Shown: positions 993 through 29,152, counted from the stretch's first letter. The stretch is 64,000 nt of DNA from Gammaproteobacteria bacterium (GCA_965215055.1 OZ244046.1:1268123-1332122); one strand, 5' to 3'. Numbers and translations are program-made. Notes: generated by a model from the sequence alone, not told the origin.

Positions 993-2213
993 GTGTCATC
1001 GGTTCAAAAAATTGTCCTCGCCTACTCAGGTGGCTTGGATACCTCTGTCATTTTAAGGTGGTTGCAGGAAACCTACCACTGTGAGGTAGTCACGTTCACC
1101 GCAGACATTGGCCAAGGTGAAGAAGTTGAGCCTGCGCGCAAAAAGGCAAAAGCTTTGGGAGTAAGCGAGATTTATGTTGAAGACCTGAAGGAAGAGTTCG
1201 TGAGTGAGTTTGTCTACCCCATGTTTCGTGCCAATGCAATCTATGAGGGAGAGTATTTACTGGGTACTGCAATTGCAAGGCCATTGATTGCAAGACGTTT
1301 AGTGGAAATCGCTAAAGAAACGGGTGCCGATGCAGTCTCTCATGGTGCTACTGGCAAGGGCAATGATCAGGTACGTTTCGAATTGGGCATATATGCGCAT
1401 AATCCCGATATTACAATCATTGCGCCCTGGCGGGAATGGCAACTTGATTCCCGTCAGAAATTATTGGCCTATGCAGAGAAAAACAACATTACAATAGAAC
1501 AAAAGCACGGTAGTCAGTCTCCGTATTCAATGGATGCAAATTTGCTCCACATCTCTTATGAAGGCGCCCGGTTGGAAGACCCTTGGGAAGAGCCGGATGA
1601 AGATATGTGGAAGCTTACCTGTGCGCCTGAGCAGGCACCTGAGCTACCGACGTACTTGGAAATCGGTTTCGAACAAGGGGATGCCGTACATTTGAATGGC
1701 GAGCCCAAGAGTCCAGCGCAATTATTGAAGGACTTGAACGTACTTGCCGGCGAACACGGTGTGGGTAGAAAGGATATTGTTGAAAATCGCTACGTTGGCA
1801 TGAAGTCGCGCGGCTGCTATGAAACTCCGGGTGGTGCGGTGCTGCTCAAGGCGCATCGTGCAGTGGAATCGATTACGCTTGACCGGGAACAGGCACACCT
1901 GAAGGATGAGATTATGCCACGTTACGCGCAATTGATTTACAATGGTTACTGGTGGAGTCCAGAACGCCTAGCCTTGCAAAAATTAATTGACGCGACCCAA
2001 ATAAATGTGACTGGCACCGCGCGTCTCAAGCTGTATAAAGGCAACGTAAGCGTGGTGGGACGCAAGTCAGAAAAAAACAGCCTGTTTGACTCGGGTATGG
2101 CGACTTTTGAAGATGACGCTGGCGTTTATAATCAAAAAGATGCGGAAGGCTTTATAAAATTAAATGCCTTGCGTATGCGAATTGCGGTAAAATCCCTCAG
2201 CCGACAACATTAA
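993..2213 (+). CDS. argG: Argininosuccinate synthase
   Basis: [35 protein letters not shown]. Confidence 0.98.
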
Positions 2214-2228
2214 ACGGACTTAAAGTTC

Positions 2229-2993
2229 ATGTGCGTATCCCTTGTGACAAAAAGGCGCACCACGCCTAGACACCTCTTTTTGCTGATGCTGATGCTGAGC
2301 GTAATGGTGAGTGGTTGTACGAGCACTCAGCAACTGTCGAGTGACCCCAGAGACCCTTGGGAGGGGTTCAACCGGGGTGTGTACGGTTTTAATGATGCCT
2401 TGGACCAAGTTTTCCTGACTCCTGTAGCGACGGGTTACCGAGCCGTGGCGCCGGAGTTTGTTGAAACAGGCGTGAGCAATTTCTTTGCAAATATCAATGA
2501 CATTGGTGTCGCGTTGAATAACGCTTTGCAGTTCAAGTTTCTCGATGCAGCCTCCGACATAGGACGTGTTCTTGTTAATTCCACAGTAGGGCTGCTGGGG
2601 TTTGTTGACGTAGCCAGTCATATGGGGCTGCAAAAACATGAAGAAGACTTTGGTCAGACGCTTGGCTATTGGGGAGTGGGTAGCGGCCCCTACGTGGTAT
2701 TGCCCTTTTTTGGTCCCAGTAACCTGCGTGATACCCCCGGCAAAGCGGTAGACATGGTGTTATGGCCGCTGAATCAGGCTGATATCAAAACTTCGGAGAG
2801 AAACGGTTTTTTTGTATTGAATGCTGTTAGCAAACGCGCAGAGCTGATGCAGCTTGAGGAAAAAACCGAAGAGCTCATTCGTGACCGTTATGTATTTATT
2901 CGAGATGCATACTTGGCTCGTCGTGAGTTTTTGGTTAATGATGGCGAAGTTTCGGTGGACGTTGATTTTTATGAAGAGTCGGAAGACAAGTGA
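2229..2993 (+). CDS. mlaA: MlaA/VacJ family outer-membrane lipoprotein
   Basis: Lipobox-like VSGC; DPWEGFNR, EDFGQTLGYWGVGSGPYVVLPFFGPS. Confidence 0.95.
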   Translation: MCVSLVTKRRTTPRHLFLLMLMLSVMVSGCTSTQQLSSDPRDPWEGFNRGVYGFNDALDQVFLTPVATGYRAVAPEFVETGVSNFFANINDIGVALNNALQFKFLDAASDIGRVLVNSTVGLLGFVDVASHMGLQKHEEDFGQTLGYWGVGSGPYVVLPFFGPSNLRDTPGKAVDMVLWPLNQADIKTSERNGFFVLNAVSKRAELMQLEEKTEELIRDRYVFIRDAYLARREFLVNDGEVSVDVDFYEESEDK

Positions 2994-3055
2994 TGTTTAC
3001 TAAAAGAGTGGACATGTGAGTTTTATGAAAAGAAGAATAGTATTCGATCAATCTC

Positions 3056-3880
3056 GTGGGCAAATGTATCGTCTGCGATAGATCTGCAGGCCCGTTCTAT
3101 TCTTTACACAAGACCTGCTACCAGGCGTATCAGGATGTCCGCGGCGATCTGCAGCGAATATTTTCCGAATCGATTGAATCTGCCGTAAAGGCAGAAGAGT
3201 TGGCCGAAGCATTATATGGTTGTCGTCCGGCCTCCCCGTTTTCACTTCGCCAGTTTGAAAATTTAATAATTCGTACGTGGCAGGAACAAGCCGGACAAAT
3301 CGTAAGAAGCAAATCACTCGACCACAGACATGCAAATTATTTGCTTGCCGTTGCGCCGGTTTTGGCAATTGAAGATAAAGACGTAGAACCGCATTTATTT
3401 CAAAGACTTGCAAATATCCAGCACCTTGAACGCATCAATCAAGGGAAACCTGCCTTGAAAATTTTTACGGCTCTTGATGATGGGATAGATTTGGCGCCTG
3501 ACGAGGCCGTGATTTGGGTATTTGAAGATGTAATGAAGGCAGAGCAGCAACAAAGCAGGGCCGAGAATCAACAATGGAGTATATTCCAGTCTATATTGAA
3601 TGGTCTATTCAATAAATCACGCTATAAGGATAAGGAGCTAAGGATAAAAGTCGAAGCTGCCGGCAACTTGGCGATTACCAACCAGAGTCTCTACTACGTT
3701 ACCAAAGGAAAAGTCACAGAGATTTGCTTGGCGGACATCTACTCCATTACGCCGATGAAAGACGGAGTACGCATACAAACCACACAAAGGGATACTACCC
3801 CCGACACCTATATTACGGGGGACGGTCGTTTTACGTATGCATTGTTATGCCATGCCAAGGGGAAAAAGTTGACGAACTAA
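3056..3880 (+). CDS. Hypothetical protein with N-terminal CxxC...HxxC putative Zn-binding motif and possible C-terminal PH-like domain
   Basis: 274-aa ORF filling the gap after mlaA; CIVC and HKTC near the N-terminus; no family recognised. Confidence 0.7.
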   Translation: MGKCIVCDRSAGPFYSLHKTCYQAYQDVRGDLQRIFSESIESAVKAEELAEALYGCRPASPFSLRQFENLIIRTWQEQAGQIVRSKSLDHRHANYLLAVAPVLAIEDKDVEPHLFQRLANIQHLERINQGKPALKIFTALDDGIDLAPDEAVIWVFEDVMKAEQQQSRAENQQWSIFQSILNGLFNKSRYKDKELRIKVEAAGNLAITNQSLYYVTKGKVTEICLADIYSITPMKDGVRIQTTQRDTTPDTYITGDGRFTYALLCHAKGKKLTN

Positions 3881-4037
3881 CTGCTAAGCCTTTGGATAAG
3901 ATTAGGGGTGCTTCCAAGAGGTTTGCAACTCCTGGATATGCTTGTTGTGACTAAGTTTTGGTCCTGTCGGTGCCCCGCTTATTTGAGCACTAGCGTAATC
4001 CCGGTATTACGACGGATTAGACACATAAATTGGTACC

Positions 4038-4196
4038 CTAACCGCAAAATATCTTTTTTAGCCAGCCAACAAAGCCGCTACTGGGTTGTACAGGTTGTGT
4101 TTCTTGTTGTGCAGGTTGTCCGTTTTCGGACTGTTTTCCATGAATAGCATCATAATGCCGCCGCAACACGGAATCTGTGGGAATGGTATCGCTCAT
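4038..4196 (-). CDS. Small 52-aa protein (MSDTIPTDSVLRRHYDAIHGKQSENGQPAQQETQPVQPSSGFVGWLKKIFCG), below ORF-track cutoff
   Basis: Translated by hand; AAGGAGG Shine-Dalgarno 7 nt before ATG at 4196; TAG at 4038-4040; protein-like modular composition. Confidence 0.75.
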   Translation of the reverse strand: MSDTIPTDSVLRRHYDAIHGKQSENGQPAQQETQPVQPSSGFVGWLKKIFCG

Positions 4197-4447
4197 TATT
4201 ACCCCTCCTTTCTGGATTTGCCATTATTGCAATAAAGGGAACATTATTTCCTCAAAACTCTAACACCGTTGTTACAATGATGCACTAATTAATGACTATC
4301 TACGTTACATACGTTGGTATATTTGATTAATATGGACTCAAATGTTTCGCAGCCGTGAAATCCGGTGGTATATTTCAGTTCTGATTAGGAAAACTTTCAC
4401 TATAGCGATGCTAAAGGTTTTAATCATTATGGTTTGGGAAATGAATA

Positions 4448-5080
4448 ATGAATAAAAAAGCTCTTGAGATTCTCGCAGGAGGGCGGTACCTGGAAGATGC
4501 TGCAACTATGGATGGCCGCAATCGTGATGTCGAGCTTGAAGATCACGTGAGAAAGATGCTGCAGCGCATAGGTGAAAATCCAAATCGTGAAGGTTTACTT
4601 GATACTCCAGCACGCGTTTCTGAAGCACTGCGGTTCTTGACGAGCGGTTATCAGCTTACAGTAGAGGAAGTCGTACAGGATGCCTTGTTTGAGGAATGCT
4701 GTGAGGAGATGGTGATCGTCAAGGATGTTGAGTTCTACTCTTTATGTGAGCATCACCTGCTACCTTTTTTCGGGCGTGCGCATGTCGGATATCTACCGCA
4801 TGGCCGCGTGATAGGGTTGAGCAAAATCGCTCGTGTTGTTGACGTTTTTGCAAGGCGCTTGCAAGTACAGGAGAGGCTTACGATGCAAATAGCAAGCGGC
4901 TTGCTGAGTATACTCAACGCGCACGGAGTTGCCGTAGTACTTGAGGCTAGTCATTTCTGCATGGTAATGCGAGGTGTACAAAAGCAGAACAGTAAAACCG
5001 TTACCAGTTCAATGCTTGGTGCATTTCGGGATGATTCGCGTTCCCGCTCCGAGTTTATGGAGTTAATCCGCGAATCATAG
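4448..5080 (+). CDS. folE: GTP cyclohydrolase I type 1
   Basis: [49 protein letters not shown]. Confidence 0.97.
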
Positions 5081-13139: not shown

Positions 13140-13828
13140 GCCGTCATCGTCAACTGATTGTGAGTAAGAAGCCAATTCTTGAGTTCAATGGCTTTGTTGA
13201 AAACGACGTCTGCCCCCCAGTTGTGGATATCCCGATGATCTTGGATATAGCCATACGCTGCTATAGCGGTTTTCATTTTTGCTGCCTTGCCTGCCTGCAC
13301 GTCACGCAGATCATCACCCATGTATATGCAATCAGTCTTGTCAACACCAATGATGTTTGCAGCGTGCAGTAATTGGTTGGGGCTTGGTTTTTTTTTGGAC
13401 AGAGAATCACCGCTAATCATGCAGATGGCTCGAAAGGCGATACCAAGTTGTTGTATCAATGGTTCGGCCAACCGGCCTGGTTTGTTGGTAACAATCCCCC
13501 AAGGAATACCGGTCTGGTCGAGAAAATCCAATAACTTGGGTACGTCTGTGAACAATTTCGTCTTGTTACAAAGCATCTCAGCGTAGAGCTGTAGAAATTC
13601 GTCACGCAGTTGCAAACCTCGTTTTTCTTCCAAATGCTCTCCAAACCCTAGTTTGAGCATGGCGATACTGCCTTTTGAAGCATGCTTACGTACTACGTCG
13701 TACGCAAGCACGTCTTTACCGTATGTCATCAATAATCTGTTCAGTGCATCTGTCATATCAGCTGAGGTGTCCGCCAAAGTACCATCTAAGTCAAATAGTA
13801 CGGCCCTCACTTGAGATGAGTTACTCAT
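13136..13828 (-). CDS. gph: HAD-IA hydrolase, phosphoglycolate phosphatase-like
   Basis: FDLDGTLAD, VTNKP, KKKPSP, YMGDDLRD; adjacent to ubiG. Confidence 0.88.
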   Translation of the reverse strand: MSNSSQVRAVLFDLDGTLADTSADMTDALNRLLMTYGKDVLAYDVVRKHASKGSIAMLKLGFGEHLEEKRGLQLRDEFLQLYAEMLCNKTKLFTDVPKLLDFLDQTGIPWGIVTNKPGRLAEPLIQQLGIAFRAICMISGDSLSKKKPSPNQLLHAANIIGVDKTDCIYMGDDLRDVQAGKAAKMKTAIAAYGYIQDHRDIHNWGADVVFNKAIELKNWLLTHNQLTMTA

Positions 13829-13846
13829 GTAGAATCATCGTGAAAG

Positions 13847-14566
13847 TCAATTTTGTCCTTGCTGTTTTTCGGCGTGGACGAGGTAATTTATACTAATGTT
13901 TGTTGACAGTGCATAGGATTTGCTGAAAGGGTTGTAGGTTATGCCGACGATTTCATTGGTGCGCATGTGCGCGTGGCGAATCAAATGATCAAGTTCCGAC
14001 GGGCGAATCAGCTTTTCGTACTCATGGGTGCCTTTGGGCAACAGGTTCAGGATGTACTCTGCACCTATGATTGCGTACAGGAAAGACTTGGGACTGCGGT
14101 TTATTGTGGCAAAAAAGACTTGGCCTTGTGGCTTCACCAGTTGCGCACAAGCCTTGACGATTGCGGCGGGGTCAGGGACATGCTCCAACATTTCCATGCA
14201 GGTAACGACATCAAACGATTGCGGCCTCTCGCCCGCAAGCTCTTCTGCTGAAGTCATCTGATATTCTATATCCAACTTTTGTTCACGGGCATGGATTCTT
14301 GCGACTGTAAGAGGGGCTTTACCAAGGTCAATACCTGTTACCTGCGCACCTCTTTGCGCCATGGATTCGGATAATATGCCGCCGCCGCAACCCACGTCGA
14401 GAACCTTCTTTCCCCCTAGATTCACCTGCTTATCAATATAATTCAGGCGAAGGGGGTTGATATCGTGCAATGGCTTGAGTTCACTTTCTTTGTCCCACCA
14501 GCGATAGGCCATTGCTTCAAACTTGGCTAGTTCTTCTTCATCAACGTTGGTGTGCGTAGCTGGCAT
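13847..14566 (-). CDS. ubiG: Ubiquinone biosynthesis O-methyltransferase
   Basis: PLHDINPLRL, VLDVGCGGGILSES, CMEMLEHVPDP. Confidence 0.97.
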   Translation of the reverse strand: MPATHTNVDEEELAKFEAMAYRWWDKESELKPLHDINPLRLNYIDKQVNLGGKKVLDVGCGGGILSESMAQRGAQVTGIDLGKAPLTVARIHAREQKLDIEYQMTSAEELAGERPQSFDVVTCMEMLEHVPDPAAIVKACAQLVKPQGQVFFATINRSPKSFLYAIIGAEYILNLLPKGTHEYEKLIRPSELDHLIRHAHMRTNEIVGITYNPFSKSYALSTNISINYLVHAEKQQGQN

Positions 14567-19854: not shown

Positions 19855-20940
19855 ATGCGAAAGGTGTTTTATTTTGGTGCGGGTCCGGCTATCTTGCCAG
19901 AATCAGTGCTCAAGGGGATTCAAAGGGAGTTTCTTGATTATCAGGGTACCGGTCTTTCCATAGTTGAATTCAGTCATCGCAGCAAGGAGCTACTCGCCGT
20001 CAGAGACCGTGCCGAAGGGCTGTTAAGGGAGTTATTGCGAATTCCCGACAACTATGCGGTATTGTTTATGCACGGCGGTGCTACCAACCAGTTTTCCATG
20101 CTGCCGTTAAACTTTCTTGGTAAAGATGCAAGTGCCGATTACTTATGTACCGGACATTGGTCAACTAAGGCGTGCATGGAGGCAAAAAAATTTGGTGTAA
20201 TCAATGAAATTCATGCGTTGAATAGTGATGGGTCTCTATCAATCCTGTCCCCGGATGTAAGGAGATTTACCTCGAATACCGCCTATGTCCACTATTGTGA
20301 TAATGAAACCATCGATGGTGTCGCCTTTGCGCAGGTGCCGAATGTCGATGGCCGACCACTGGTATGTGATATGACCTCTTCGATACTGATGCGCCCGATT
20401 GATGTTGGCGAATACAGTCTGATCTATGCCAGCGCCCAAAAGAATCTAGGTATTGCCGGGCTTGGCGTAGTGATCGTCAAAAGGGCATTCCTTAATAATA
20501 GAAACATGGACGTACCTCGATTGTATGATTACGGGTTGTATGCCGAAGAAGACTCGTTGGTCAACACGCCGCCAACTTTTGCAATCTACGTTCTGCAGCG
20601 CATACTTGATTGGGTCAAGAGCCAGGGAGGTGTTGAAGAAATGTATCAACGAAGCAAGACGCGTGCCGCTTTGGTATATCAGGTAGTTGATGCGGAAGAT
20701 CTTTACAGCAACGAAGTGGCTGAAGAAAATCGCTCAAGAATCAACATTCCATTCAGGATTAAAGATGCCGGTTTACAGGATGATTTTTTGTGGCAGGCAG
20801 AAGAAAACAGGCTGCTCGGATTGCGTGGTCACAAGGCTGTAGGGGGGGTCCGGGTTAGCCTGTACAATGCCATGCCGCAAGCAGGTGTGCAACAACTGAT
20901 AAGTTTTATGCAGAAGTTTGCTCGCAAACAGTTAGCGTAG
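19855..20940 (+). CDS. serC: Phosphoserine aminotransferase
   Basis: YFGAGPAILP, EFSHRS, YASAQKNLG (PLP Lys), NTPPTF, GGVRVSLYNA. Confidence 0.97.
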   Translation: MRKVFYFGAGPAILPESVLKGIQREFLDYQGTGLSIVEFSHRSKELLAVRDRAEGLLRELLRIPDNYAVLFMHGGATNQFSMLPLNFLGKDASADYLCTGHWSTKACMEAKKFGVINEIHALNSDGSLSILSPDVRRFTSNTAYVHYCDNETIDGVAFAQVPNVDGRPLVCDMTSSILMRPIDVGEYSLIYASAQKNLGIAGLGVVIVKRAFLNNRNMDVPRLYDYGLYAEEDSLVNTPPTFAIYVLQRILDWVKSQGGVEEMYQRSKTRAALVYQVVDAEDLYSNEVAEENRSRINIPFRIKDAGLQDDFLWQAEENRLLGLRGHKAVGGVRVSLYNAMPQAGVQQLISFMQKFARKQLA

Positions 20941-21038
20941 ATATCGACAAAAGTGCCAAGTGCACCACCTGTCTGCACGGGTAATGAGTTTTGCCGCGCC
21001 TTTTTACCAGAGGTAATACTCAAGCGATTTTTGTAAGC

Positions 21039-22442
21039 CTATTCATCATCATCGCTTTGGTCCGGCACTACCACGAACTCTGGATAGGCTTCAATGCCGA
21101 GTTCGGCCACATCTTGGCCGAGTTCTTCAACGGTAGGCGAAACTCGTACGCCTATCAGTTTTTTCAGGCCCAACCACAACAACCACGAAGTCGTAAACAC
21201 GAATGCGCCGATAGCAAGGATTCCGGTAATCTGCGCAACGAGACTACCTCCTGCTGCAATACAAACTGCAAGGGTTCCCCAGATACCTGCAAACAAATGC
21301 GCAGGAACCGCACCGACTACATCATCCAGTTTGACAATTTCCAGTAGTTTCATGCCGCCAGTACAAATAACGCCACCAATGGCACCGATAATGATCGCCC
21401 AGTAATGATTGACGATGTCTGGTCCTGCGGTAATTGCCACCAAGCCGGCAATGGCGCCGTTAAGCACGGCAAGCAGGTCAACTCGGCCAAGGAGGGGACG
21501 CGAGATGCTGATTGAGGCCATGACACCGCCTGCCGCAGCAAGGTTCGTATTTACAAGGATATTGCTCATTGCTACAGCATCTATGGCACTGGCAGCAGCA
21601 AGCTGGGAGCCACCATTAAAACCAAACCATCCCATCCAGAGAATGAAAACTCCCAGAGTTACGGCAGGGATGTTGGAAGGCGGCGTGGGCTTGACGCTAC
21701 CATCACGTCGGAATTTGCCTATTCTTGGGCCGACGACGAGAGCGCCTGCAAGTGCAGCCCAACCACCGGTGGAATGTACAATGGTAGACCCTGCAAAATC
21801 CTGAAAACCAAGGTTATAGAGCCATCCTCCACCCCATGTCCAGGCGCCGACAATGGGGTAGATGATTGCTGTCAAAAAAGCTGTAAATGCGAAAAATCCC
21901 CATAGTTTTACTCGTTCAGCCAGTGTACCGGAAACAATGGAAGCCGCGGTCGCTACAAAGACCATCTGAAAAAACCAATCGGACATGGTAGAATAGTCGG
22001 ATCTTACGACCTTCTCCACAGCATTTTCTCCGCCGTTCAACAGAGCAATTTCATCAGGTGACGAGTTGTAGAATAAAGTGAACGAGCCGATCAGCTTCCC
22101 CACATCGGTATACATAAGGTTGTACCCAATTATGTAGTAGGCTAGACCTGCGATAGAATAAAGTCCAATGTTCTTGAGGCAGATCACTGAAGCGTTTTTA
22201 GTGCGTACGGAACCCGCTTCCAGCATAGTGAAGCCGGCGCACATCCACATTATAAGTACTCCCCAAACTAGAAAGGAAAACGTGTTTATAACGAATTTCG
22301 TTTCCGCTCCAATGCTTGCTGCATGTGCGGAGCCTAAATATACAAGGCCAAGTACCGCAAAAATTCCCGTAATTCTCAGTGTGCGACGGGTGACACTGTT
22401 ATAGTCGTCGTTACTGTCCGGATCAAGTTCATTCTCACTCAT
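21039..22442 (-). CDS. amtB: Ammonium transporter (Amt family) with N-terminal signal peptide
   Basis: AGFTMLEAG, FFQMVF, DFAGSTIVHSTGG, WMGWFGFNGGS, DDVVGAVPAH (twin His intact); start MSENEL at 22442. Confidence 0.95.
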   Translation of the reverse strand: MSENELDPDSNDDYNSVTRRTLRITGIFAVLGLVYLGSAHAASIGAETKFVINTFSFLVWGVLIMWMCAGFTMLEAGSVRTKNASVICLKNIGLYSIAGLAYYIIGYNLMYTDVGKLIGSFTLFYNSSPDEIALLNGGENAVEKVVRSDYSTMSDWFFQMVFVATAASIVSGTLAERVKLWGFFAFTAFLTAIIYPIVGAWTWGGGWLYNLGFQDFAGSTIVHSTGGWAALAGALVVGPRIGKFRRDGSVKPTPPSNIPAVTLGVFILWMGWFGFNGGSQLAAASAIDAVAMSNILVNTNLAAAGGVMASISISRPLLGRVDLLAVLNGAIAGLVAITAGPDIVNHYWAIIIGAIGGVICTGGMKLLEIVKLDDVVGAVPAHLFAGIWGTLAVCIAAGGSLVAQITGILAIGAFVFTTSWLLWLGLKKLIGVRVSPTVEELGQDVAELGIEAYPEFVVVPDQSDDDE

Positions 22443-22545
22443 GGCTCGCCGCTTTTTTAAGGAGATCAGCATGATTATTGGGATACTGAGTAGGCGAAGA
22501 TTATTTTGAGGTTTAGTCAAATAATTAGAAAGCTTACTTATAATC

Positions 22546-22561
22546 TGCAAGTCGTGAGCCG
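22546..22561 (-). promoter_or_regulatory. sigma54 (-24/-12) promoter candidate for amt
   Basis: Minus strand CGGCTCACGACTTGCA fits YGGCACR-N4-TTGCW with one mismatch and exact GG-N10-GC spacing, ~105 nt upstream of the amt ATG. Confidence 0.6.
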
Positions 22562-22691
22562 TATAGAAAACCCTTGACCTGTGGCAAGCTAGCATACTTT
22601 GCAGCTTTGTTCAAAACGCTTCCAAAAAGCAATGGAGTAGTGTGGGCTATAGCGATTCAACTTGGCTGGGACGCCTCGTCAGATTAGAAGT

Positions 22692-24899
22692 TTAGGAAGA
22701 CGTTATGGGTTCTTCCCCCTCTTCACTCAACTCTTGTTCCGCTATAGGGGGTGCAGTGGTAGGAATTGTGACAATCATCTCCGTGAATTTTTCCAGTTCC
22801 GATTCCACGCGAATTGTACCGCCATGTTCTCGAACGATGTCGCTGGACAGCGCAAGACCCAGCCCCGTGCCTTGGTCGGTGGGCTTGGTCGTAAAAAATG
22901 GATTAAAAATCTTGTCGATGACATCTGGTGGGATTCCTGCACCGTTGTCCCGTATACGAACTTCAACATGTTCTTGTGTACGTTGGGTGGATATCCACAT
23001 GGTTGGCTCATAGGGGGATTCTTCTTTTTCCAGTGCCTTTCGGCGCTCATCTGTGGCGTGGCAGGCGTTGCTGACCATGTTCAGGAAAACACGTCCCATG
23101 TCTTGGGGAATGACTTCAATCTCACCTACCTCAGGGCTCAGGTCTTGTTTGATCTCCAGTTGAAAATCCGAATCGGTGGCGCGCGCACTGTGAAAGGCAA
23201 GCCATGCGTGTTCTTCGAGTAAACCGTTGATATCAGTAGGCTGTCGGTCACTTGAGCCACGTCCCATCATCAGCATGTCGCGCACAATACGGTCAGCGCG
23301 GTTGCCATGACTACGGATACGTTCCAGGTTTTCATTGAGGTCGCAACAGATATCGGCTGTCAGTTCACGCTGTTCCTTGCTCAACTTCTCTCCTCCTTGC
23401 TGCAAGGTTTCCTCAAGTTCTTCCAGCAACTCCTCGGACGCTTCGGCGAAGTTTTTTACGAAGTTCAGCGGATTCTTGATTTCGTGTGCTACGCCTGCGG
23501 TGAGTTCGCCGAGTGAAGCAAGTTTCTCGCGCATGACGATCTGATCCTGCATATGGCGCAAGTCTGCCAGTGCCGTCTCTAGCTGACTGTTCTTGTCACG
23601 CAGGTCTGTGGCAAGTTTTTCTACTAGATTCAAGCGCTGCACCTCTAATGCATTGCGGCGAAAAACTTCCAGTGCTGCAGCCATCTCTGCCACTTCGTCG
23701 TGTCCACCGATTTTAAGCTCGGTTTCCAGGTCACCTTCGGCCATGTGACGCATCCGTCTCGACAGCGAATCAAGTCGGCGCAATAGTGCTCGCCCAACAA
23801 ATAACCACGCAATCAGTACTGCTCCAGTGATACCGGCAATATTTATAAAAATAAGCAGGTTTTGGCCTGTGCGAATCGTCTGTTCCGAAGTATGGGAGGC
23901 TTCCTCAGCGCTTAGTCTGGCTGCACTGACTAAGTTGTCAACTTCTGCAGCCAGTTCAATTGCGAGAGAGCCATTTTGCGCTAACAAAGCTTGTTGAAGT
24001 TGGGTTAATGTCAATTTTCTGGTATGTAGGTCAAAGCTTCCATCAGTTCCTAGACCCAGCTTGAATAATCGGGTAAATGCAGGAGTGATTTGCTGACGTA
24101 CAGGTGCTGTGCCAAGCGCAGATAGGCTCCGCTCGATGCTAGCCATGGTAGCTTCGAAACGTTCTCGCAACGGCTCCAATAGCGCCGTATCTGAAAGGTT
24201 GAACGCAATGGCTACCAACTGTGTTATGGAAGTCATATCTGAATACAGCGTAGCCAGATGACGATAGTGGTCGAATTCCTTCTTCGAAAAATGAACCTCT
24301 CGCGGTACTGGTGCTTCGTCAAGTTGACGATATCCCGTCATCGTGTAGAACAACTGATTGTCAATGGCTGGAACCAGTATGTCAGTTAATTCGCTTTGTA
24401 CTTCCAATAATTCGGCTTGCAGGGTTTCGCTACGCGCAGCAAGTTCAAATCTCGTAGCTACTGACTCCTCAATCATCTGGATATTGGATATAATTGCCTC
24501 ACCCGAAGCGCGGGTCTGTTTCAAATGCCTATCACGCTCGTCCTGTAAATTTGATTCCGATTCCAGCAGAAGAAGGTCGTTTAACAGTGCTTCAAAGGAG
24601 CTACGTTTTTCAGCAATATCATTGGAAACGCGGGTAAAGGCTTCCATCGTCATGGTTGCCGTTAGATGTGGAGCAGCATCTACCAGTGCGGCACTTTGGC
24701 GCGCGATTGAGAACGCTGCTGCCATTTCCGGAACACTGTCCTCAGTAACACGTCTGTGAACGTCGCTTACCCGATTAAAAAATAGCCAGGCGACCAGACT
24801 GGCACCAATAGTGAAAGCTACCGCTATGCTAATTCCCAGGTAGAGTTGAGTCGAGATTCGAAAGCGAGCCTGAAGCAGGTGTTTTAACAGCTTGCGCAT
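22692..24899 (-). CDS. Membrane sensor histidine kinase: TorS-like periplasmic region, HAMP, HisKA, HATPase
   Basis: Two TM helices flanking ~310 aa helical periplasmic region; HAMP (EGDL...DEVAEMAAAL); H-box GVAHEIKNPLNF; DNGAGIP, NPFFTTK, GTGLGL. Confidence 0.9.
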   Translation of the reverse strand: MRKLLKHLLQARFRISTQLYLGISIAVAFTIGASLVAWLFFNRVSDVHRRVTEDSVPEMAAAFSIARQSAALVDAAPHLTATMTMEAFTRVSNDIAEKRSSFEALLNDLLLLESESNLQDERDRHLKQTRASGEAIISNIQMIEESVATRFELAARSETLQAELLEVQSELTDILVPAIDNQLFYTMTGYRQLDEAPVPREVHFSKKEFDHYRHLATLYSDMTSITQLVAIAFNLSDTALLEPLRERFEATMASIERSLSALGTAPVRQQITPAFTRLFKLGLGTDGSFDLHTRKLTLTQLQQALLAQNGSLAIELAAEVDNLVSAARLSAEEASHTSEQTIRTGQNLLIFINIAGITGAVLIAWLFVGRALLRRLDSLSRRMRHMAEGDLETELKIGGHDEVAEMAAALEVFRRNALEVQRLNLVEKLATDLRDKNSQLETALADLRHMQDQIVMREKLASLGELTAGVAHEIKNPLNFVKNFAEASEELLEELEETLQQGGEKLSKEQRELTADICCDLNENLERIRSHGNRADRIVRDMLMMGRGSSDRQPTDINGLLEEHAWLAFHSARATDSDFQLEIKQDLSPEVGEIEVIPQDMGRVFLNMVSNACHATDERRKALEKEESPYEPTMWISTQRTQEHVEVRIRDNGAGIPPDVIDKIFNPFFTTKPTDQGTGLGLALSSDIVREHGGTIRVESELEKFTEMIVTIPTTAPPIAEQELSEEGEEPITSS

Positions 24900-26074
24900 G
24901 ACCTCATCAGGCTTCCCAATGTCTCGACAGAATGGTAGTTCCCGTCGCTGCCGATTGTAGTAAGAAAGACGGTGTCTGACCCCTGGTTGTCGTTATCGCC
25001 ATAACGTAACATAAACCCATCCAGATCAATGTTGTCTGTTTGACGTAGAGTGTCAAGGAAGCAGGTACGGTTCACTGCTGGACCACAGCGTTCCAACGCG
25101 ACGATCGCAAGTCTTCCAGCTAGGTAGCCTTCGAGTGAAACAAAACTTGGCGCGGTGTCTACCGCCAAGGTCGAAAGTGCCTTTCTGTACGTAGAAACAA
25201 CGGCAGGTTTTTCACCTTCTGGCAATGGCACTACCTGAGTAACAAGGACTCCTGCACCACCTGTTCCTAGCTCCCGAACTAACGCGTTGCTTCCGACGAA
25301 GGAGATTGTTATGAATACGGGGTCAAAGTTTGTATGCCGTGCCCAGGCAATCAGTGCGGCAACCGGCTTATAGGCACCGATAATTATTACCCCGCCGGGG
25401 TTGTCGTCGCGTACATCAAGCAAGGCTGTCTTTACAACTGTAGTATTGCGTGGGTATACGCCGATTGCTACTGGTTCCATGTCGCGCTGTTTGAGGGCGC
25501 GCTGCACACCACGGTAACCTGCTCGACCAAACGAGTCATCTTGGTATATTACGGCGACGCGCTCAATTCCAAGATTATTGACAAGGTAAGAGATCATTGT
25601 TTCAGTTTCCTGATCGTAAGATGCACGCAGGTTGATGACATTGCTTAAACTTGCTTGCCGCAGAAAAGCGGCTCCGGTAAATGGAGCAATATAGGGAACA
25701 CCGGCATCCATCGCAATGGGAACAGCGGAACGCGATGTCGGCGTGCCGACTGCTCCGATTAGCGCGAATACCTGATCTCGATCAATCAGGTGACGGGTAT
25801 TGATGATAGCAGTTTCCGGCTCGTAGGCATCGTCGAGAGATACTAATTCAAGCTTTCGCCCGTGAACTCCGCCCTTCTTATTTATTTCATGGAAGGCTGC
25901 CTGAATTCCAAGCCGCATGTTTTTACCTAGCTCCTGAGCAGGGCCGGTAAATGCAGCGGACTGACCAAACAGTATGCGCTTATCAAGTATGCCCGTCTCT
26001 TCCCCTCCAACGATTGTTGTCGACACTACGCCACTAAACAAACCAAATACGCATATACCTGTAGTTAGCCTCAT
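24884..26074 (-). CDS. Type-1 periplasmic binding protein (LivJ/branched-chain amino acid-like fold), no cognate permease nearby
   Basis: ILFGQSAAFTGPA...INKKGGVHGRKLELVSLDDAYEP, LIGAVGTPTS, NLRASYDQE, YQDDSFGRAG. Confidence 0.88.
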   Translation of the reverse strand: MRLTTGICVFGLFSGVVSTTIVGGEETGILDKRILFGQSAAFTGPAQELGKNMRLGIQAAFHEINKKGGVHGRKLELVSLDDAYEPETAIINTRHLIDRDQVFALIGAVGTPTSRSAVPIAMDAGVPYIAPFTGAAFLRQASLSNVINLRASYDQETETMISYLVNNLGIERVAVIYQDDSFGRAGYRGVQRALKQRDMEPVAIGVYPRNTTVVKTALLDVRDDNPGGVIIIGAYKPVAALIAWARHTNFDPVFITISFVGSNALVRELGTGGAGVLVTQVVPLPEGEKPAVVSTYRKALSTLAVDTAPSFVSLEGYLAGRLAIVALERCGPAVNRTCFLDTLRQTDNIDLDGFMLRYGDNDNQGSDTVFLTTIGSDGNYHSVETLGSLMRSCASC

Positions 26075-26493
26075 TTAGCCACCGTTTTAACGAGGGTGAT
26101 GTGGTTTCTTTCTGCTTCCCGTCGATAGTGCAGCTCGTCCATTATTGAACGTACCAAGTGAACACCAAGCCCACCAATGGGCCGGTCTTCCACATTTGAG
26201 TCCAGGTCGGGTTCGGGGGCTTCACTTAGGGGATTGAATGCTCGCCCGTCGTCAATAATCTCAATAGTGAGAGTGTTTACCTCCAGTACCAGCGAGATCT
26301 CGAATTCATGGGTTTTATCGTCATCGTAGGCGTAATTTACGATGTTGATGCCTAACTCTTCCAAGGCAAGGTTTATTTGATAAGTGAGGCTTGGCGGTAA
26401 GTTCTGTGCTTGACCAAATTCCTCTACTGCATTTTGAATCTGCCGCAATGCATCGATACTGGCTTCAACTTGCAGAGATAATTTTGCGCTCAT
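26071..26493 (-). CDS. RsbW/SpoIIAB-like anti-sigma Ser kinase (HATPase_c_2)
   Basis: LALEELGINIVNYAY, IIDDGRAFNP, RPIGGLGVHLVRSIMD. Confidence 0.92.
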   Translation of the reverse strand: MSAKLSLQVEASIDALRQIQNAVEEFGQAQNLPPSLTYQINLALEELGINIVNYAYDDDKTHEFEISLVLEVNTLTIEIIDDGRAFNPLSEAPEPDLDSNVEDRPIGGLGVHLVRSIMDELHYRREAERNHITLVKTVAK

Positions 26494-26498
26494 ACGCC

Positions 26499-27659
26499 TT
26501 ATCCACCATGTACGAGAGTCAAACAGGTAATGTCATCCGACTGAGGTGTATCTCCTGCAAAGGCGTGCACTGCCGCAAAAATTGCTTGGTTAGCTTGCTG
26601 CGCATTGCCTAGTGGCGCTTTGGTAAAGACCTCGCGTAGACGCTCCATACCAAACTCTTCACTCTCACCATTCATGGCTTCCGTCACACCATCAGTGTAC
26701 AATACGACAATATCTTTGGGGGCGAGTGCCACAGTACTCTGCTCATAGCGAAACCCGGGCATGATCCCCAAAGCAGTTCCCTCAGTCGAGGAGAGCAGCG
26801 TTGAGCTTCCATCAGCGTGTACAATAAGCGGAGGGTTGTGCCCACCATTCGCATATACAAGCGACCCATTTGCAGGATTGAAAACCGCATAAAAAAGGGT
26901 AACAAACATTGCAGCTTCATTATTTTCACAAAGCAAATTGTTGACCTCATGCAATACCTCGCCCGGTTCAGCGCTACCAATAGCGGCACCTTTGAGCAGC
27001 GTACGGCTGGACATCATAAAAAGAGCAGCATGTACGCCTTTATCGGAAACATCGGCAATGGCGAGTCCAATGTGGTCATCCTCTAGGCGCAGAATGTCGT
27101 AAAAGTCACCACCTACCTCGCGTGCAGGCTCCATGTTTGCATAGACGTGGTAACTGGAGCTTTCAGGAAAGCAGGTAGGGAGAATAGATCTCTGCATCTG
27201 GCTGGCAATATCAAGCTCATTCTTTAGCATGATCAATTTGTCGCGTGATGCAAGTGCATCACGCCATAGTTCCAAGTGTTGCAAAGTTCTGTCTATGGTG
27301 ATGCGCAAATCCTTAAAGTCGATAGGCTTGGTAATGAAATCGAATGCCCCTCGGTTCATAGCCGTGCGGATGTTTTTCATGTCTCCGTATGCCGAAATAA
27401 TCACGGAACGGATGTTGGGGTCGACTTTAGGAATTTGCTCTAGAAGCGTCAGGCCGTCCATCTGTGGCATGTTGATGTCCGAGAGCACCATGTCGACATC
27501 TGAGTCTTCTTTCAGTAACTTGAGTGCTTCGACGCCATTGTGGGCAAACTCGAATGTGTAACGGCCCTCCCGCACCTCCCGGCGCATACGCTGGCGCACT
27601 AAGTGTTCGAGGTCAGGCTCGTCATCGACTACGAGGATTTTGTATTGTGCTTGGTCCAA
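26499..27659 (-). CDS. Response regulator with PP2C/SpoIIE phosphatase output (RsbU-like)
   Basis: REC: VVDD, LSDINMP, FITKP; PP2C: VGGDFYD, IADVSDKG, YTDGVTEA, SDDIT. Confidence 0.94.
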   Translation of the reverse strand: MDQAQYKILVVDDEPDLEHLVRQRMRREVREGRYTFEFAHNGVEALKLLKEDSDVDMVLSDINMPQMDGLTLLEQIPKVDPNIRSVIISAYGDMKNIRTAMNRGAFDFITKPIDFKDLRITIDRTLQHLELWRDALASRDKLIMLKNELDIASQMQRSILPTCFPESSSYHVYANMEPAREVGGDFYDILRLEDDHIGLAIADVSDKGVHAALFMMSSRTLLKGAAIGSAEPGEVLHEVNNLLCENNEAAMFVTLFYAVFNPANGSLVYANGGHNPPLIVHADGSSTLLSSTEGTALGIMPGFRYEQSTVALAPKDIVVLYTDGVTEAMNGESEEFGMERLREVFTKAPLGNAQQANQAIFAAVHAFAGDTPQSDDITCLTLVHGG

Positions 27660-27758
27660 GTTTTCTCAATCTTGTAGTAAAGGAATTGAGTTTGCTATCT
27701 GGGAGGATCAGAAACTGTGCTTAAGAGTTTGTTGCCATACTGCAAGTTCAGATAATTA

Positions 27759-28097
27759 TCAGGCAAGCTGCTTTGTCAATGCCTCTGTTCGGGTGGCGTG
27801 AATGGAGATAATTTGGTCAAAACCACTGATTTGAAAAACTTCATTAATTGGGTCTGAAAGTGCACAAAGCGCAAATTTTGCCTCTTTTTTTCGTAGTGTT
27901 TTCGCGATCAACAGAATTACTCTAAGCCCTGCGCTGCTGATGTAAGAAAGTTCATCGAAGTCCAGGATGACCGCACGATCATTATCACTAATGATATCTT
28001 TGAGGGCTTTCTCAAACTCAAGGGCATTGGAGCCGTCTATGCGCCCCGCTACCTGCGCAATCAATGCCCCCTCTTCCCGCTCATGATTTATTTTCAT
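27759..28097 (-). CDS. STAS-domain anti-sigma factor antagonist (RsbV/SpoIIAA-like)
   Basis: GRIDGSNA, LDFDELSYISSAGLRV with phosphorylatable Ser. Confidence 0.94.
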   Translation of the reverse strand: MKINHEREEGALIAQVAGRIDGSNALEFEKALKDIISDNDRAVILDFDELSYISSAGLRVILLIAKTLRKKEAKFALCALSDPINEVFQISGFDQIISIHATRTEALTKQLA

Positions 28098-28186
28098 TGA
28101 TTCCTCGCTCCAGCTTTTATTGAATAGCTAACGCTATTTTTCTCCTAGAAGGATAACATTAGCTGAATAAGTGACAAAGCATTTAG

Positions 28187-29152
28187 TTACATTATCTCTT
28201 CCGTTCCACACTCTGTTTTTTGGCGAAATAACTTGGGCAGGGGAAACACGACATTTTCTGGTTTGCCTAGAGAATTAACTATTTGCACGTCGGGTAACTT
28301 CTTTAGGTGATTTACCACTTGTTGTACTAATATCTCGGGTGCCGAGGCACCTGCAGTAACCCCGATTTTTGTTTTCCCGTGTAGCCAGATGTCTTCAATA
28401 TGTTCCGCATCGTCAATCAAATGCGCTTCAACTCCGTTTTTGTCTGCGATCTCGCGAAGACGGTTCGAGTTGGAGCTATTTTTGGACCCAATGACCAATA
28501 ACAGGTCGCAATCTTCGACCAATTTTTTTACCGCATCCTGTCTGTTTTGTGTGGCATAGCATATGTCATTTTTTTTAGGGCCGATGATATTCGGGAAACG
28601 CCTCCTCAGCTCATTGATTACATTACCAGTGTCATCCATGGATAAGGTAGTTTGTGTGACAAAGGCAATTTTATCTTTATTTTTGACTTGCAGTTTGGCA
28701 ACGTCGTCGACATTTTCAACTAGGTATATTTGCCCGTTACAAGACCTATCATATTGGCCCATGGTGCCTTCAACTTCCGGGTGGCCCTTGTGGCCAATAA
28801 GCACCGTATCGAATCCGTCTTTACCGTAACGCGCGATTTCCAGATGAACCTTGGTTACCAAGGGACAGGTGGCGTCAAATACCCTGAGGTTGCGGTTAGA
28901 GGCTTCCTGTTGTACAGCCTTGGACACACCGTGCGCACTGAAAATTACAGTAGAGCCATCCGGTACTGCATTCAATTCATCTACGAATAGCACCCCCTTT
29001 TTTTTGAGATCATCCACCACGAATTTGTTGTGCACGACCTCATGGCGAACGTAAATGGGTGCGCCAATTAATTTTAATGCACGTTCCACAATCTCTATAG
29101 CGCGGTCTACGCCGGCACAGAAGCCACGTGGATTTGCAAGCAGTACTTGCAT
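28187..29152 (-). CDS. ispH: 4-hydroxy-3-methylbut-2-enyl diphosphate reductase
   Basis: [36 protein letters not shown]. Confidence 0.98.

Follow-up and report, generated by a model that had tools for sequence, protein, structure and literature searches.

In a 64,000-nucleotide stretch of DNA from a gammaproteobacterium (Gammaproteobacteria bacterium, GCA_965215055.1, OZ244046.1:1268123-1332122; hereafter the window, with positions counted from its first letter), five co-oriented genes at 22692-28097 encode a STAS protein, a receiver-phosphatase fusion (REC-PP2C), an RsbW-like kinase, a periplasmic binding protein and a membrane histidine kinase. Our analysis suggests that these genes form a mobile, sigma-less signalling cassette in which the binding protein and the histidine kinase would feed a partner switch, with nitrogen or ammonium handling through an ammonium channel (Amt) without GlnK as its most likely output. 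We give this reading, taken as a whole, an even chance of being correct.

Results

Architecture of the cassette

The domains of the five genes, all of which lie on the minus strand, were assigned with Pfam and NCBIfam profiles. The first gene encodes a STAS protein of 112 amino acids (27759-28097; Pfam STAS, 2.4e-20; TIGR00377 at 79 bits, above its cut-off), and a spacer of 99 nucleotides (27660-27758) separates it from the REC-PP2C gene, which has a TTG start and encodes 386 amino acids (26499-27659; Pfam Response_reg, 7e-26, and SpoIIE, 1.3e-53). These are followed by the genes for the RsbW-like kinase of 140 amino acids (26071-26493; Pfam HATPase_c_2, 7e-29), the binding protein of 396 amino acids (24884-26074; Pfam Peripla_BP_6, 1.3e-58) and the histidine kinase of 735 amino acids (22692-24899; Pfam HAMP, HisKA and HATPase_c). 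After the 99-nucleotide spacer the junctions are a 5-nucleotide gap, a 4-nucleotide ATGA overlap and a 16-nucleotide overlap; the binding-protein gene overlaps both the RsbW-like and the histidine kinase gene and is translationally coupled to them. The open reading frames, domains, coordinates and spacings given by an earlier reading of the same DNA, made from the sequence only, are all confirmed.

Conservation and transfer between phyla

The sequence-only reading had staked its proposal on the five genes occurring together elsewhere, and the same gene order indeed recurs, far more often than chance would allow. A binding-protein scan of species-representative genomes (62-72% identity) yielded 80 loci and protein look-ups a further four, and nearly all of these 84 loci are ordered STAS, REC-PP2C, RsbW, binding protein, kinase, with a separate gene for the RsbW-like kinase in nearly all of them. 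The binding-protein gene overlaps both of its neighbours in most loci; the last three junctions of the orthologues are mostly overlaps of 4 or 16 nucleotides, and the STAS spacer measures 21-496 nucleotides. The loci belong to Gammaproteobacteria, Alphaproteobacteria, Latescibacterota, Opitutia, Chloroflexota (Dehalococcoidia and Tepidiformia), Acidimicrobiia and Binatia, so that the cassette spans at least seven phyla, at identities of 50-75%.

The tree of the concatenated cassette proteins is shallow and clustered by lineage, with several nestings across phyla: Chloroflexota enclose Acidimicrobiia on three occasions, Opitutia cluster with Latescibacterota, and Alphaproteobacteria with Binatia. 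When the window is compared with the genome of a near relative (L004), GyrA is 82% identical and the kinase 71%; in the comparison with a Latescibacterota genome GyrA falls to about 50%, with the kinase at 63%, the binding protein at 67% and REC-PP2C at 71%. The kinase is therefore less conserved than GyrA in the near relative, yet more conserved than GyrA across phyla, which argues for horizontal transfer. A full-length kinase homologue is present in only three of 400 evenly sampled Gammaproteobacteria: the genome of the window itself and a pair of genomes from one other family. Within the family to which the window belongs, two genomes carry none. The tree and the identities indicate that the cassette has moved horizontally between phyla.

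The unusual 16-nucleotide overlap of the binding-protein and kinase genes (24884-24899) is conserved in loci of Gammaproteobacteria, Latescibacterota, Dehalococcoidia and Tepidiformia, which fits the transfer of a DNA block as a unit. Variant layouts were also observed: loci from another gammaproteobacterial family (L140, 6700-7471; L141, 7147-7878) carry two STAS genes in tandem, convergent with the genes for REC-PP2C, RsbW, the binding protein and the kinase, and locus L028 contains a duplicated set of STAS, REC-PP2C and RsbW (2026-4203).

Association with an ammonium channel lacking GlnK

Some 250 nucleotides downstream of the kinase gene lies a co-oriented amt gene (21039-22442, minus strand; Pfam Ammonium_transp, 1.4e-99), which, like the spread across phyla, had no place in the sequence-only reading. 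Its longest open reading frame reaches 22595, and M52 at 22442 is the likely start. The Pfam core match is full-length (3-399 of 399) and no signalling domain is fused to it. This Amt belongs to a divergent branch of the 'marine subtype', only just above the TIGR03644 threshold (518.8 bits against a cut-off of 514), and in our tree its subfamily sits on a long branch, apart from the GlnK-linked 'marine subtype' Amt of the host. Of the three amt genes of the host genome, two stand directly behind PII (glnK-type) genes (C1:1385139-1386823 and C1:833045-834712), and the one linked to the cassette has no PII gene.

In about 20 loci the cassette is adjoined by an Amt 63-76% identical to that of the host, which lies either behind the kinase or ahead of the STAS gene. 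We also examined 12 genomes in which no STAS gene adjoins the cassette and located the best STAS orthologue in each. In all six Pseudomonadales among them, this orthologue lies directly downstream of an Amt gene, on the same strand, the Amt being 71-76% identical. Four Dehalococcoidia genomes have a second locus in which STAS, REC-PP2C and RsbW converge on an Amt-containing operon, and the remaining two (L022 and L025) carry STAS alone with no Amt nearby. Since STAS is the component that remains associated with Amt in split cassettes, it is the likely carrier of the output.

The association extends to unlinked genes. A cassette-type Amt is carried elsewhere in 11 of 14 further cassette genomes that have no linked Amt, and the Amt tree mirrors features of the cassette tree, including the pairing of Alphaproteobacteria and Binatia, although some 680 kb separate the Binatia Amt from its cassette. 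No PII gene was found beside a cassette-type Amt in the fetched loci; in L033, the apparent exception, the glnK gene accompanies a different, divergent Amt. In three large related genomes, probably Latescibacterota (L085-L087, around 13368-13880), the Amt gene behind the kinase is disrupted, with pieces of 89-139 amino acids remaining, and the five cassette genes are intact.

Several observations weigh against a direct role of the channel. The Amt gene is unlinked in most Chloroflexota and Acidimicrobiia cassette genomes, and co-occurrence and similar trees could result from shared habitat and joint transfer rather than from direct regulation. Common descent links many of the loci, which leaves few independent associations, amounting to roughly four or five arrangements. 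A STAS-Amt interaction is not known in the literature searched, STAS does not have a PII fold, and the alignment of Amt orthologues reveals no conserved C-terminal extension as a docking site. Finally, second STAS paralogues adjoin unrelated genes (aldolase, amidohydrolase, LysR, SBP_bac_5) with no pattern.

The link could also be read in the opposite direction, with Amt sensing ammonium and signalling to STAS or RsbW, so that the switch would combine ammonium with the ligand of the binding protein, the true output lying elsewhere. Amt-like proteins fused to signalling domains serve as ammonium sensors in some bacteria, and the long branch and borderline TIGR03644 score of the cassette Amts would suit such a role. 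The direction of signalling is not distinguished by the data, but the cassette Amt consists of a full-length core with no signalling domain, and we consider this reading improbable.

A further alternative is that the switch acts on another non-sigma target, for example an enzyme or a second-messenger protein (compare HsbA, SypA and HenR), and that the Amt link reflects a shared nitrogen regulon or mobile DNA. STAS outputs that do not involve a sigma factor have been characterised (PMC8256260, PMC13555669), other neighbours recur, namely a cation-diffusion-facilitator gene in 13 loci and an ATP-grasp operon in at least 11, and most Chloroflexota cassettes have no Amt nearby. However, when we clustered the neighbours in search of a sixth gene as the target, Amt was the only one to recur across phyla, indeed across most of them and in several arrangements. 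Moreover, STAS specifically follows Amt in Pseudomonadales, and the Amt linked to the cassette in the host is precisely the one without glnK. We regard another target as rather unlikely, and favour the GlnK-less Amt as the route of the output.

Sigma factors and signalling proteins of the host

The host genome, a single contig of 1.68 Mb that is 99.9% complete, contains three genes of the sigma-70 family, which we read as RpoD, RpoH and one extracytoplasmic-function (ECF) sigma factor; with these three alone, the classical SigB/F-type class of targets is absent. No sigma gene was noted near the cassette among the annotated flanking genes of the 84 loci. The RsbW-like kinase is the sole HATPase_c_2 protein of the genome, and the second of its two STAS domains is found in a transporter-sized open reading frame of 607 amino acids. 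Receiver proteins number four: a NarL-type regulator, NtrC, PhoB and REC-PP2C. This streamlined genome has thus kept very few signalling systems, the cassette among them.

These results bear on the classical mode of action, in which the RsbW-like protein would hold RpoD, RpoH or the ECF sigma factor until unphosphorylated STAS releases it, Amt being merely co-regulated. RsbW and SpoIIAB are the nearest named relatives of the kinase, TIGR00377 labels STAS an anti-sigma antagonist, and among the cassette members the RsbW-like protein shows the lowest conservation (41-71% identity), as expected if it adapts to host partners. For a Chlamydia RsbW, an action on the primary sigma factor has reportedly been proposed. 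On the other hand, the genome has no group-3 sigma factor and no sigma gene was noted among the annotated flanking genes, a cassette crossing phyla at 50-75% identity would need a co-carried or universal target, and upon splitting it is STAS that goes with Amt, RsbW remaining with the enzymes. We therefore find an anti-sigma function unlikely. The last step of the sequence-only reading, in which RsbW is sequestered and a target released, finds no support here: the genome has no SigB/F-type sigma factor, and after the split STAS, not RsbW, follows Amt.

The partner-switch proteins

We examined the catalytic motifs in alignments of 67-85 orthologues per protein. As the earlier reading had judged, they are intact in the window, and they are nearly invariant among the orthologues. 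Ser55 of STAS, in the motif ISSAG (YISSAGL), aligns with Ser58 of SpoIIAA and is kept in all orthologues aligned, including the Amt-linked STAS copies; it is the predicted phosphorylation site. STAS is likely to be both the substrate of the RsbW-like kinase and the phosphatase and the output element.

In REC-PP2C, the receiver residues D12/D13, D61 (the acceptor) and K111 are intact, as are the phosphatase motifs GGDFYD, DVSDKG, NGGH, YTDG and SDD, and the SpoIIE profile match spans positions 2-189 of 192. Its nearest solved relative is an RssB-type REC-PP2C protein of P. aeruginosa (3eq2), and it is among the best-conserved cassette members, with 54-81% identity. The RsbW-like kinase has conserved N, G1 and G2 boxes, a serine-kinase role being predicted from its sequence, and gives weak PDB matches to RsbW (6m36) and SpoIIAB. 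The components of an RsbU/RsbV/RsbW module, that is, a STAS protein with the serine, a HATPase_c_2 kinase and a PP2C phosphatase, are all found here; a cognate alternative sigma factor is not.

The sensor pair

The histidine kinase comprises a first transmembrane helix, a periplasmic domain of about 300 amino acids, a second transmembrane helix, HAMP, HisKA and HATPase_c, with neither a receiver nor an HPt domain. Its H-box, AHEIKNPL, which contains the His of HisKA, is intact and hardly varies among orthologues, and the same is true of its N, G1, F and G2 boxes. The motifs expected of a two-component pair, the H-box His and ATP-binding boxes in the kinase and the Asp and Lys in the receiver, are all present. 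From the invariant co-location in the 84 loci and the presence of only four receivers in the genome, we infer that the histidine kinase and REC-PP2C are cognate partners.

Residues 15-444 of the kinase match TIGR02956 (TorS), with 167 bits against an equivalog cut-off of 676. We modelled residues 38-352 with AlphaFold (31 orthologues; mean predicted local distance difference test score, pLDDT, 90.7). The six best PDB fold matches of this periplasmic model are TorS sensor domains, including TorS-TorT complexes, with template-modelling (TM) scores of 0.63-0.82 (target-normalised), and the domain models as a TorS-type double four-helix bundle. The locus thus combines the two features of a TorT-TorS-type pair, a TorS-type sensor domain and an overlapping binding-protein gene.

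The secreted binding protein starts with an N-terminal hydrophobic leader and belongs to the LivJ/AmiC/UrtA superfamily of type-I solute-binding proteins, with 62-72% identity across phyla. No NCBIfam equivalog fits it, and among solved structures it is closest to 4kv7 (E 4e-69), which is labelled 'probable Leu/Ile/Val-binding protein' and is uncharacterised. We aligned it roughly with E. coli LivJ, a comparison that is too weak to name the ligand and concerns residues L49, T111, T133, Y235 and S258 of the binding protein. In this alignment the equivalents of Ser79, of the carboxylate-binding Ser/Thr and of Tyr202 are kept. An invariant Ser stands in place of Glu226, the residue that contacts the alpha-ammonium group, and Leu in place of Tyr18. 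These replacements hint at a ligand other than a plain alpha-amino acid.

Peripla_BP_6 proteins are mostly transport proteins, and the protein might be an ordinary component of an ATP-binding cassette (ABC) transporter encoded beside an unrelated kinase. The genome does hold BPD_transp_2 permease genes, but only one pair, more than 1 Mb from the cassette, and no ABC permease was found among the annotated flanking genes of cassette loci. In addition, the binding-protein gene overlaps both neighbours in most loci, and the kinase has the sensor fold by which TorS binds TorT. We regard a transport role as highly improbable. A review of sensor kinases stimulated by binding proteins lists no Peripla_BP_6 example (PMC8050422); taking together the distant permeases and the lack of a Peripla_BP_6 kinase partner in that review, we find a co-sensor role the better reading.

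Other recurrent neighbours and sequence features

A circularly permuted ATP-grasp/Alpha-E/transglutaminase operon adjoins the cassette in eight loci of Pseudomonadales, in two of Binatia and in L053 (in all, L024, L026, L027, L029, L031, L040, L041, L019, L018, L034 and L053). In seven Chloroflexota loci (L142, L146, L147, L113, L115, L120 and L122) Amt interrupts this operon, lying between its ATP-grasp and Alpha-E genes. The host has this operon at C1:281718-285047, about 1 Mb from the cassette; its ATP-grasp protein is 80% identical to a Chloroflexota copy, and the protein is 72-84% identical across phyla.

The cation-diffusion-facilitator gene (Cation_efflux and ZT_dimer; for example L071, 3858-5027) is usually divergent from the STAS gene near which it lies, and the loci that bear it belong to Dehalococcoidia, Tepidiformia and Acidimicrobiia. 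Together with MMPL, flotillin, DUF502, DUF4202 and others, it was rejected as a conserved sixth gene, these neighbours being lineage-specific.

Genes of the GPP34 family (Golgi phosphoprotein 3-like) lie a few kb from the cassette or a STAS paralogue in L084-L087 (around 3792-4470) and L130 (5124-5777); a 2025 study associated this family with sponge symbiosis (PMC11706023). The metagenome-assembled genomes of the APA_bin and SB066x_bin series are documented sponge-symbiont bins, and the names and taxa of the other cassette genomes, including that of the window, make a sponge association plausible for them.

Within the window, a candidate sigma-70-like promoter (TTGACA-16-AATTAT, 27779-27752, 10 of 12 matches) straddles the STAS stop codon and may act as an internal promoter for the four coupled genes, the number of sites found by the promoter and terminator scan of the region being no higher than the shuffled expectation. 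When 20900-28400 was compared with Rfam, no riboswitch or leader was matched at E values up to 1, a glutamine riboswitch upstream of amt being one of the possibilities considered. The possibility that the cassette is a defence system was discarded, PADLOC giving no hits.

Discussion

We propose that the extracytoplasmic Peripla_BP_6 protein binds a small molecule and engages the kinase by docking on its TorS-like periplasmic domain, and that the kinase would set the phosphorylation of Asp61 in REC-PP2C and hence its phosphatase activity. The PP2C phosphatase and the opposing RsbW-like serine kinase would then jointly set the phosphorylation of Ser55 in STAS. Borrowing the direction from RsbY, HsbR and SypE, receiver phosphorylation is expected to turn the phosphatase on. 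The pathway would operate without a sigma factor, with nitrogen or ammonium handling as its output: STAS, alone or with the RsbW-like kinase, may act on the GlnK-less Amt as GlnK does on AmtB, and the ATP-grasp/Alpha-E/transglutaminase system that neighbours both the cassette and Amt may be a further target. We infer this signal path from protein families and synteny, and the phosphotransfer steps, the direction of regulation and the physical target are likewise predictions. The wiring from binding protein through kinase and REC-PP2C to STAS and RsbW, as the sequence-only reading had drawn it, is strengthened in its order of components by the synteny and coupling in 84 loci, the motifs and the TorS-like fold.

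A more specific and more tentative version, which we hold possible but less probable than its failure, is that STAS serves as a phosphorylation-toggled substitute for GlnK that gates the GlnK-less Amt directly, and perhaps also the ATP-grasp/Alpha-E amidoligase, in response to an extracellular and possibly host-derived cue. The cassette would then be a laterally exchanged nitrogen-sensing kit of sponge-associated bacteria belonging to many phyla.

Current understanding assigns the control of ammonium channels almost universally to PII (GlnK) proteins, and partner switches are taught mainly as sigma-factor controls. Here the cassette is kept beside the sole GlnK-less Amt in a streamlined complete genome with four receivers and three sigma factors, and this Amt type has travelled with the cassette among at least seven phyla. 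If the link is direct, it would constitute a second, phosphorylation-based way of gating ammonium uptake, connecting uptake to an extracellular cue. The cassette also gives a handle on the orphan ATP-grasp/Alpha-E/transglutaminase operon and on kinases that depend on Peripla_BP_6-type binding proteins, and it is a candidate cross-phylum trait of sponge symbionts. Since all its parts are small and either soluble or readily expressed, the hypothesis is testable in E. coli.

Comparison with known systems

In the GlnK-AmtB system, a small, covalently modified (uridylylated) cytoplasmic protein is encoded beside the channel and its modifying enzymes elsewhere. The Amt-STAS pairs of Pseudomonadales have the same layout; however, STAS does not share the PII fold and its modification would be serine phosphorylation. 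No PII gene stands beside the cassette-type Amt in the window or in the other fetched loci, and in the six Pseudomonadales genomes STAS takes that position.

In B. cereus, the kinase RsbK is said to phosphorylate the REC-PP2C protein RsbY, which dephosphorylates the STAS antagonist, RsbW reportedly re-phosphorylating it. RsbK is a hybrid kinase, either cytoplasmic or membrane-bound, that is not known to pair with a binding protein, and its output is said to be SigB, encoded in the same operon. The RsbK-RsbY-RsbV-RsbW-SigB system and the cassette both have REC-PP2C, RsbW and STAS as separate genes, but the cassette locus contains no sigma factor and the host genome lacks one of the SigB type. 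Two-component input to a partner switch has been characterised for B. cereus RsbK-RsbY (PMC4574943), P. aeruginosa HptB-HsbR-HsbA (PMC8256260) and V. fischeri SypE-SypA (PMC10120452). The earlier reading, which knew of no characterised system combining its two modules in one operon, is not supported in that form: a two-component-fed partner switch already exists, and what is new, as far as the literature searched shows, is the binding-protein-dependent, sigma-less version.

The cassette resembles P. aeruginosa HptB-HsbR(PA3346)-HsbA(PA3347), Shewanella CrsR-CrsA and V. fischeri SypE-SypA (PMC8256260, PMC6482189, PMC10120452) in that a phosphoryl input to a receiver toggles a serine kinase and a PP2C phosphatase acting on a single-domain STAS protein, which carries the output. 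In HsbR, CrsR and SypE, however, kinase, receiver and phosphatase are fused, whereas here the kinase is encoded by a separate gene of 140 amino acids. Their input arrives through an Hpt relay or the Syp kinases, with no binding protein and no Amt link, and their targets are FlgM, RpoS or biofilm functions.

With TorT-TorS and LuxP-LuxQ (PMC8050422; PDB 3O1H-3O1J) the cassette shares an adjacent gene for a periplasmic binding protein, and the sensor domain has the TorS-type fold (TM score about 0.8). TorS, however, is a hybrid kinase with receiver and HPt that feeds the DNA-binding TorR, whereas the cassette kinase leads to REC-PP2C, and the binding proteins differ in family, TorT not being of the Peripla_BP_6 type. 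In Anabaena HenR/All4160 (PMC13555669), a STAS domain is similarly switched by the HenR phosphatase and a kinase and directly regulates a target other than a sigma factor, but this STAS domain is fused to its target, a glycosyltransferase, and the locus has no binding-protein/kinase pair.

Literature searches on the cassette, and on sponge symbionts with anti-sigma antagonists, returned nothing relevant. As far as the literature searched shows, four features of the cassette are new: its combined Peripla_BP_6 and TorS-like input, the absence of a sigma factor, its mobility across phyla and its tie to a GlnK-less Amt subfamily.

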